Of a DNA stretch of 64,000 bases, positions 27,651-32,414 are shown one piece after another (position 1 is the stretch's first letter; each line of letters starts with the position of its first letter). Origin of the DNA: a candidate division FCPU426 bacterium. Lineage in GTDB: Bacteria; Oederibacteriota; Muellerivitia; Muellerivitales; Muellerivitaceae. Made by a program: the position numbers and the translations under genes. The notes beneath the pieces are model-generated. The model made no database searches and was not told the DNA's origin. It was given only the letters and a program-made list of their open reading frames with translations. The DNA lies in assembly GCA_963847625.1 (NCBI GenBank), contig CAWKAR010000060.1:1-64000 (forward strand), in the 5' to 3' direction.

Positions 27651-27726
<76 letters not shown>

Positions 27727-27779
27727 TTTATAACGCCCGAAGAAGATTGGCATTACACACGGTATGCCATATTTAATTT

Positions 27780-27899
27780 GGGCGAGAACCTGTGGGAAGA
27801 GGTGCAGAGAAATGGGAGTTTCTCCGGTTGATGGGGGTAACGCAGGGGGAAGTTCCCCTGCGAGCGCGTAAGCGCGTTCGATCCCCGCATCGCCCGCCA
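27780..27899 (+). mobile_element. tRNA-associated multi-hairpin element ending in a decayed copy of the tRNA-Lys 3' end
   Basis: 27876-27899 matches 27703-27726 at 21/24. Three internal hairpins. Homologous to 32103-32221. Confidence 0.65.
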
Positions 27900-31653: not shown

Positions 31654-31935
31654 TTGGTTGGGATAATGACCCTTAAAGTAGCCGCCAAAAGCAATCCCTC
31701 AACCGTAGCGGGAGCGATCGCCAATAACGTTCGCGACGGCAAGAGCGTTGAAATCGTTGCGATGGGACCGGAAAGTATCAATAACACGGTTAAAGCCATC
31801 GCGATCGCCCGCGGTTTCTTAAAGGGCGACGGCATGGACGCAAATTTCAAGCCGGAATTCATCCACCTGACCATTGATGGTGAAAAGAAAAGCGCCATAA
31901 AGTTTCTTTTGTACATAGAGAAAAATTCCAAATAA
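31654..31935 (+). CDS. spoVS: SpoVS-family protein
   Basis: LKVAAKSNPSTVAGAIA...VKAIAIARGFL...KPEF. Start is TTG 31654 after AAGGAG, or ATG 31666. Confidence 0.9.
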   Translation: MVGIMTLKVAAKSNPSTVAGAIANNVRDGKSVEIVAMGPESINNTVKAIAIARGFLKGDGMDANFKPEFIHLTIDGEKKSAIKFLLYIEKNSK

Positions 31936-32011: not shown

Positions 32012-32088
32012 GGGCGAATAGCTCAGCTGGTTAGAGCACCTGCTTTACACGCAGGGGGTCACAGGTTCGAGTCCTGTTTCGCCCACCA
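32012..32088 (+). tRNA. tRNA-Val(TAC)
   Basis: CCTGC-TT-TAC-AC-GCAGG; CCA. Confidence 0.95.
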
Positions 32089-32102
32089 AAATTAAATACC
32101 AA

Positions 32103-32221
32103 GGACGAGAACCTTGGGAAAGGGTCGGGGGAAACGCGAGTTTCCCCGCTTTTATGACGGGTCCATAGGGGAATCCCCCTATGAACGCGAAAGCGTGGTT
32201 CGATGTCCTATTCGCCTACTA
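32103..32221 (+). mobile_element. tRNA-associated multi-hairpin element ending in a decayed copy of the tRNA-Val 3' end
   Basis: GGTTCGATGTCCTATTCGCCTACTA (32197-32221) versus tRNA GGTTCGAGTCCTGTTTCGCCCACCA (32064-32088). Same hairpin order as 27780-27899. Confidence 0.65.
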
Positions 32222-32338
32222 AAATTAATTACCAAGGGCGAGAGCCTTGAGAATGGCTCGGAAGATTGGCTTGTTTTTTTAAGGGTTTTAGTTAGAATTG
32301 CCTTCCCTGCAACAAAATTCTTCTGGCGATCAATAACT

Positions 32339-32414
32339 GGGGGCGTAGCTCAGCTGGGAGAGCACTTCCATGGCATGGAAGGGGTCGTGGGTTCGATCCC
32401 CATCGCCTCCACCA
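32339..32414 (+). tRNA. tRNA-Ala(GGC)
   Basis: CTTCC-AT-GGC-AT-GGAAG; G3-U70; CCA. Confidence 0.95.

Follow-up and report, generated by a model that had tools for sequence, protein, structure and literature searches.

A structured unit without genes lies between two copies of the tRNA-Val end and recurs behind other gene ends in a candidate division FCPU426 bacterium

The window, meaning the whole stretch of DNA analyzed here (64,000 nt of contig CAWKAR010000060.1, assembly GCA_963847625.1, from a candidate division FCPU426 bacterium), contains tRNA-Val(TAC) at 32012–32088 and tRNA-Ala(GGC) at 32339–32414. A short unit sits between these two genes, and a dGTPase gene (NF002326, above the cut-off) is located downstream of the Val–Ala stretch. 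The parts of the Val locus and of a sister locus at tRNA-Lys were as follows.

32012..32088, + strand: tRNA-Val(TAC), the intact host gene (ARAGORN; Rfam RF00005, 74.2 bits)
32064..32088, + strand: upstream target copy, T-loop to CCA, in the first arm of a 57-nt direct repeat
32089..32101, + strand: AT-rich spacer, the loop between target copy and anti-arm (from the sequence)
32102..32114, + strand: anti-arm, an inverted copy of the host T-arm 32063–32075 (11/13, central GA/GA mismatch)
32128..32147, + strand: HP1, 8-bp stem with a GCGA loop (RNA fold; 8/8 pairs with two-sided changes, helix 3)
32148..32163, + strand: linker closing with GGG(G)T, a conserved motif left unpaired at the HP2 foot (near-invariant alignment columns)
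32164..32183, + strand: HP2, 8-bp stem, the most conserved helix (98.2% of cells paired)
32185..32196, + strand: HP3, DNA-type mini-hairpin, C-GAAA-G here and C-GNA-G in most copies, adjoining the fixed right junction
32197..32221, + strand: tail, repeating the T-loop (with one base more) and the 3' strand of the acceptor (21 positions match the Val end)
32222..32253, + strand: repeated spacer and anti-arm of an older, truncated second unit (direct repeat)
27651..27726, + strand: tRNA-Lys(CTT), host of the sister copy (ARAGORN; Rfam)
27777..27899, + strand: sister unit behind tRNA-Lys, with anti-arm, HP1–HP3 and a Lys-type tail at 27876–27899 (model match 73.1 bits)

On the 5' side of tRNA-Val, at 31667–31935 of the window, a small ORF was SpoVS-like by eye, and a longer frame that was tested had no NCBIfam match.

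The layout consists of a target-end copy, a spacer, an anti-arm formed by an inverted target copy, a core of three hairpins and a second target copy. A first-pass annotation had listed the motifs at the Val site, and all of them were present there in the order given. It had missed two features, namely that the left motif repeats the host T-arm in inverted form (11/13) and that a second, truncated unit follows at 32222–32253. An anti-arm remnant resembling this truncated unit occupies the same place in a same-genus relative. The Val–Ala interval of this relative (locus L017, C3:286866–287820) measures 952 nt, holds an integrase-like tail and a small two-gene pair that is toxin-antitoxin-like by eye, and ends in an anti-arm remnant. 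The spacer position of other copies holds a terminator-like hairpin.

The direct repeat at the Val locus (32064–32120 vs. 32197–32253, 49/58 columns) has a period of 133 bp. It spans 57 nt, from the target copy through the trailer into the second anti-arm, and ends in the truncated unit, which ties the Val unit to the tRNA-Val locus. The tail had been claimed to resemble the Val end more than the Lys end. Lenient alignment reproduced the 21 matches with two gaps to Val, but it also gave 20 matches to Ala(GGC) and 18 to Lys, so the identity count alone leaves a thin margin for Val. Local scoring ranked Val(TAC) first among 44 gene ends (28 vs. 24). For the Lys sister unit, the whole tail ranked Lys best, and the acceptor part alone ranked Lys second.

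When folded as DNA, the sense strand of the Val unit exceeded 200/200 shuffles (z −4.44), and as RNA it exceeded all shuffles except 1 of 200 (z −2.92). A single covariance model matched the Val copy with 89.2 bits and the Lys copy with 73.1 bits, both of which had helped to build it. In Rfam searches, only 7 tRNAs were matched over the window, with nothing on the unit, and over nine loci at E ≤ 1 the best match on a unit reached 24.5 bits against the 58.6 needed. The novelty that the first-pass annotation had made dependent on Rfam was thus upheld for the window and the nine loci.

To describe the family in this genome, two models were used. A profile built from nine seeds (one a duplicate) gave 25 matches at E < 1e-4, 3 of which lie on a contig end that repeats another contig end. 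The covariance model R1, built from 16 copies with the structure set by hand, gave 30 matches at E ≤ 0.001. The family size in this genome is therefore about 25–30 copies. Units lie within 70 nt of 10/44 tRNA and tmRNA genes called by ARAGORN (Val twice, Asn, Lys, Glu, Ser three times, Gln and tmRNA). Further copies were found behind displaced 3' fragments of tRNA-Arg, tRNA-Asp and probably tRNA-Gln, and behind decayed Asn-type ends distant from any tRNA. Several copies stand in tandem, with decay more advanced in the distal members of the array, and perfect tandem duplicates are also present. The proposal that one element family occurs behind different tRNAs was borne out by this survey of tRNA downstream regions and by the relatives described below.

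Several loci of this genome displayed other arrangements. A tRNA-free cluster at C27:262600–263350 holds decayed Asn-like and Gln-like ends with one intact and one worn unit; it lies close to IS30-like transposase frames and may represent a displaced array or else an accumulation of old units. Two near-identical Asn-type units distant from tRNA-Asn (L009:100–260 on C60 and L011:80–240 on C13) both have the same REP-like hairpin and a decayed Asn end in front of them, and are apparently passengers of another repeat. In three places (C40:5093, C5:23108 and C26:69010), HP2 without the rest of the core lies inside a different, MITE-like repeat of some 200 nt that has terminal inverted repeats of its own. 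Three partial cores without an anti-arm (L013, L014 and L015, on C57 and C3) have in common long upstream mosaics of other repeats; on C3, two of them form an inverted pair with a 1.7-kb segment between them. A different palindromic repeat family was observed 3' of tRNA-Leu(CAG), tRNA-Leu(GAG) and tRNA-Ala(CGC) (C3:95530, C13:63046 and C4:3527), and in tandem on C57.

R1 matches were found in 29/30 other genomes of the family and in 2/68 other genomes of the phylum, the latter weak. The 88 better-scoring loci of relatives were taken from the listed matches, and 90 copies were kept at E ≤ 1e-9. Units range from about 110 to 190 bases (133 at Val, 108–144 bp at the lpd gene end described below) and always lie in the sense orientation of transcribed genes. 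Presence at a given site is patchy. Among 11 loci examined, the Val–Ala interval was without the core in 7/7 relatives with both tRNAs called, and one other relative (L087) carries a Val(TAC) unit. Outside these genomes, viral contigs gave 0 matches with two patterns, and a genome collection gave 4 with a strict pattern. Metagenomes gave 45 stretches, all with a model match, and no ORF was seen within 170 nt 5' of the match in them. Reads from four sequencing runs, sampled at shares of 0.15 or less, left the unit essentially uncovered.

The nearest neighbor of a core had the same target in 38/90 copies (5.5 expected) and the same genome in 8 (4.9 expected). The cores cluster by target across genomes and not by genome, which suggests that switching from tRNA to tRNA is rare and that spread is mostly homing to the same site. 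The copies are kin and not independent, so p-values are overstated.

The core is a covarying three-hairpin structure. In the 90 copies, which come from other genomes and took no part in model building, 91.6% of cells pair and 26/29 pairs exhibit two-sided changes. The covariation score was 0.491, compared to 0.196 in shuffled alignments and at most 0.126 in slid ones, with the alignment fitted to the model, which favors covariation. Without such fitting, RNAalifold found just 10 pairs in the 16-copy alignment, since HP1 was out of register there. The claim that pairing is kept while stem sequences differ, under selection on structure, thus held well beyond the two copies for which it was made. 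Chance or local duplication alone is ruled out by the family size together with the covariation. The GGG(G)T motif closes the linker in at least 63/90 of these copies. The lpd-end unit of one relative (L137, G013; 108 bp) is without most of HP1, which may therefore be dispensable once the unit is inserted.

The HP3 loops of the 90 copies were C-GNA-G in 63, C-GNNA-G in 7, a T-rich triloop in 6 and others in 14. According to the available text of PMC13037366, GCGNAGC and GCGNNAGC are extraordinarily stable DNA mini-hairpins, the RNA form of one being much weaker, and such hairpins are found at single-stranded DNA origins and the N4 promoter. The C-GNA-G triloops are the main reason to favor DNA over RNA, and the folded molecule is probably single-stranded DNA.

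In another explanation the unit works as RNA, either as a structured 3' trailer for processing or termination or as a target-primed reverse-transcription element with a long target duplication. Several features would suit it. The units are always in sense orientation, HP1 loops are often GNRA-like, G-T pairs exceed A-C pairs on the sense strand (121 vs. 54, a count biased by the model), and a fixed 3' junction with a variable duplication length fits target-primed insertion. We consider this explanation quite improbable, since the HP3 triloops are of DNA type, no Rfam family matches, and the patchy presence speaks against a needed signal. Furthermore, both reverse transcriptases of this genome are group II intron-like with no core beside them, and a duplication copied from the target predicts identical ends, not the synonymous variants found at lpd. 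The first-pass annotation had proposed a trans-acting recombinase or a retro-type mechanism; the trans-acting part agrees with the lack of an enzyme gene in cis around the 90 copies, while the retro option is weakened by the DNA-type loops.

Tails and anti-arms were compared with the adjacent genes for the 56/90 copies that have an ARAGORN gene within 400 nt upstream. The tail best matched the adjacent gene among 26 distinct ends in 46/56 copies, as the targeting model of the first-pass annotation had predicted, and the left arm ranked the adjacent gene first, ties included, in 36/56. The inverted copy in the anti-arm amounts to 11/13 at Val and extends to about 21 nt in other copies. In the tRNA cases, the anti-arm fitted the intact upstream copy better than the tail by 63 to 3 with 4 ties, a preference that tail decay inflates. 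The base after the anti-arm complements the host base outside the junction in 38/54 copies and the base on its own side in 8; shuffles gave a mean of 14.2, and 0/2000 did as well. The second and third bases beyond the junction displayed little or no pairing (22 vs. 16.4 and 6 vs. 5.6).

One or two extra T-loop bases were present in 43/70 tails, so the unit is the likely source of the first tail bases. Arms of many different tRNAs have the same GA/GA mismatch, which suggests that arms are inherited and not made anew. Often, a single long imperfect palindrome is made up of the target copy, the spacer hairpin and the anti-arm. Most copies carry target repeats of at least 20 nt that lie within about 200 nt of each other, and the right junction at HP3 is fixed, also in unrelated targets, with a variable duplication length.

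The same core also occurs at other kinds of target, namely the 5' ends of tRNAs, hairpins that resemble terminators, a REP-like repeat that it adjoins, and the final 14 codons of lpd. This gene is dihydrolipoyl dehydrogenase-like, with TIGR01350 as the best family on partial proteins. Targeting is therefore not tied to the T-loop, contrary to what had been supposed. The layout at these targets was alike by eye. In a score test of their anti-arms, 6/15 had at most 10% of cross-pairs scoring as well, and three of the terminator or repeat type failed. The arm rule can thus be relied on for tRNA and lpd targets but is unproven for terminators.

The lpd end was filled in 8/21 genomes with the site recovered and is empty in this genome; 3 further lpd loci without the motif were kept outside the 21. 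The filling corresponds to 6 changes on the lpd protein tree and was no more clustered than shuffled labels. End-copy pairs were compared in ten cases (8 genomes and 2 metagenome contigs, with two duplicates and one truncated copy left out). These 10 pairs exhibited 45 synonymous and 5 non-synonymous codon differences. Third positions accounted for 46/57 differences (p = 1.7e-6 against 50%, the value predicted for a functional copy beside one that merely decays). The two copies therefore have separate histories as functional gene ends in different lineages.

The direction of exchange was read from the same pairs. In 7 pairs GC3 was higher in the downstream copy, as it is in the gene body, with 2 against and 1 tie, which is a modest argument, and the anti-arm fitted the upstream copy better in 9/10. 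The lpd copies thus point to a unit that brings the upstream gene end along and pushes the resident end downstream, which is the reverse of the earlier proposal that the unit takes the 3' end of its host. By extension from these relatives, at least the 3' part of 32064–32088 at the Val locus would be the gene end brought by the unit, and the tail at 32197–32221 would be the displaced resident end. The analysis is strongest where the codons speak for a carried foreign end and where one core is retargeted. Comparative evidence indicates that the unit is real, structured and mobile, and it is very probably both mobile and end-carrying.

These observations also bear on an explanation with no dedicated enzyme, in which fold-back synthesis makes the anti-arm and host homologous recombination amplifies, excises and re-integrates DNA that has been taken up. 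The long imperfect palindromes of target copy, spacer hairpin and anti-arm would follow from it, and perfect tandem duplicates, locus-specific cores and the lack of an enzyme among the families tested agree with it. Four of the lpd pairs, however, carry synonymous differences at 7/9 codons with the peptide kept or nearly kept; such ends are poor recombination substrates, which makes plain homologous recombination unlikely. A fixed HP3 right junction in unrelated targets, the same GA/GA mismatch across many tRNA arms and a conserved core that needs a reader also speak against this explanation, which we judge improbable.

A partner enzyme was sought in the neighborhood of the copies. The 603 reading frames around the 90 copies were syntenic host genes and shadow frames with no recurrent partner (clusters judged by eye), and island integrases stood beside only 4 loci. 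Three copies in this genome were merely carried off with island-split tRNA ends. 

Candidate families were also compared with the unit. For the integron integrase, the best TIGR02249 match in this genome (94% complete) scored 45.3 bits against a cut-off of 265. GIY-YIG domains gave 3 matches, with the core beside neither stand-alone one, and neither of the 2 reverse transcriptases adjoins a core. None of the 14 PF01548 matches of IS110 occurred where a unit is listed. The Y2 transposase gave 0 matches, with the controls likewise blank. The 3 Y1 transposases of this genome are flanked by a different inverted repeat and have no core; in the phylum, Y1 flanked by the core was found at 0/29 loci. 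Y1_Tnp does not track the unit either, as 8/9 family genomes without a Y1 match carry the unit and Y1 is present in 50/68 outside genomes. Three Y1 proteins of 311–349 aa (L125, L126 and L127) are bounded by a short GGGGTCAGGCC inverted repeat, and at two of these loci an IS110 copy lies directly at the GGGGTCAGGCC repeat. None of the candidate families tested adjoins or tracks the core.

A tyrosine recombinase could instead move the unit as an att-flanked mini-element, either by reading an attC-like hairpin folded from anti-arm and target or by the action of island integrases in trans. The arm pairs with its own upstream end, like R'' of integrons, stem imperfections recur, with the extra base in 43/70 tails, and this genome has 18 PF00589 matches. 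Replacement of a tRNA 3' end from the T-loop is also the classic attP/attB outcome, as in mycobacteriophage Ms6 (PMC1762012, in its available text). Nevertheless, no integron integrase exceeded the cut-off in this genome, and island integrases adjoin only 4 loci, with three copies just carried off with island-split ends. The attC boxes appear to be absent from the non-T-arm copies. The targets (T-arm, lpd end, tRNA 5' end and terminators) have no common sequence, which rules out an ordinary sequence-specific integrase. We regard this explanation as a whole as unlikely.

The reading we prefer, with a probability of roughly 0.55, is that the unit is a gene-less insert between two gene-end copies that moves from one related genome to another as a folded single-stranded DNA circle, targeted by pairing and served by a predicted enzyme in trans. 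The mobile form would be a circle composed of gene end, spacer, anti-arm and core, and the folded molecule would be sense-strand DNA. The anti-arm would guide the circle by pairing with the target; its use in target choice is slightly favored over its being a bystander. The predicted nick-and-join enzyme would join the circle to the site, with strands exchanged at the 5' edge of the target or slightly within it. The carried end would restore the gene and the resident end would be displaced. Exchange of a circle at this edge would yield the observed layout, the arrays and an intact gene. A new target lineage would arise when a core, rarely, gains a new end together with its inverted copy. For the enzyme, an HUH type is somewhat favored over a structure-reading tyrosine recombinase, because the foot of a hairpin carries a conserved unpaired motif and the pairing of an internal arm reaches host bases immediately beyond the left junction, both of which recall IS200/IS605.

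If this reading is right, target choice is written in the DNA of the element itself and can be changed while the core stays constant. It would point to a programmable DNA-joining enzyme, for which the folded core could serve as bait. It would also provide a route for the exchange of essential-gene ends between genera, and it would account for short repeats of tRNA ends that island finders would take for scars of prophages. More tentatively, the units may represent a minimal class of mobile DNA, a protein-free single-stranded circle of about 130 nt whose own 10–25-nt arm programs its site in any conserved sequence, the gene-end swap keeping insertion harmless. The enzyme of such a class would be a natural DNA-guided, retargetable integrase.

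The unit was compared with known systems. Integron cassettes form arrays in which each unit is closed by a folded imperfect hairpin whose left arm (R'') complements the unit's own start. Arrays of units closed by such hairpins are common to both, as the cassette system is described. Unlike cassettes, the unit has no ORF cargo, no IntI above the cut-off and no attI, and its arms are copies of host genes. The attC boxes have the consensus RYYYAAC...GTTRRRY with extrahelical bases; AAC/GTT occurs in the units only because T-loops hold GTTC, and it is absent from lpd-type copies.

Islands and prophages with a tyrosine integrase are bounded on both sides by a direct repeat of the 3' end of the tRNA, and so is the unit, but the integrase gene between the repeats is absent, and 133 bp leave no room for one. 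CIMEs are integrase-less remnants of tyrosine-integrase elements at tRNA T-loops. Such islands and CIMEs use one att core per family, whereas the unit core serves T-arms, the lpd end, tRNA 5' ends and terminators. With Ms6-type tyrosine-integrase elements, as far as the available text of PMC1762012 describes them, the unit has in common insertion at the 3' end of a tRNA gene, restoration of that gene by some 25 nt carried along, a displaced copy and tandem arrays. It differs from them in having neither integrase nor cargo, in its size of about 130 bp and in carrying an inverted target copy. Ms6 needs a near-identical 26-bp core, as stated in the same text, whereas the unit tolerates divergent ends.

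Yeast WHO elements substitute the 3' end of FBA1 and accumulate in clusters, the most recent element lying closest to the gene (bioRxiv 10.1101/2020.01.20.913210, available text). In both systems a foreign allele repeatedly replaces the 3' end of an essential gene, and the fragments start at one position. By that account WHO elements have their own endonuclease and home by break repair at one gene, whereas the unit has no coding content, is structured and falls into many target lineages. Unlike MITEs, the unit has no constant terminal inverted repeats in common with an IS, its arms changing with the target. Unlike the non-coding ends of IS110 and bridge-RNA elements, the units listed for this genome do not coincide with a DEDD recombinase gene. 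The TRIP and tyrT/rtT repeats of E. coli lie behind tRNA genes and include the tRNA 3' end and palindromes; they are not known from protein-gene ends or with target-complementary arms.

Insertion of IS200/IS605 elements produces no target duplication, whereas copies of the unit mostly carry repeats of at least 20 nt. No Y1 gene is flanked by the core, either at the 29 phylum loci or in this genome. In the available text on REP sequences and TnpA-REP (bioRxiv 10.1101/279083), a GT(A/G)G tetranucleotide stands at the hairpin foot. The unit resembles IS200/IS605 derivatives and REP in its short hairpins, conserved foot motif, predicted single-stranded DNA substrate and internal sequence pairing with the target flank. 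In comparison with what that text describes, the HP2 foot of the unit is GGGTA(A), its guide has 10–25 nt and not 4, and the target end is duplicated and replaced.

No such element appears in the available text of a review of small bacterial repeats (PMC3184786), and searches of the open literature gave no description of such a unit. The unit fits no known family tested, failing a defining feature of each.
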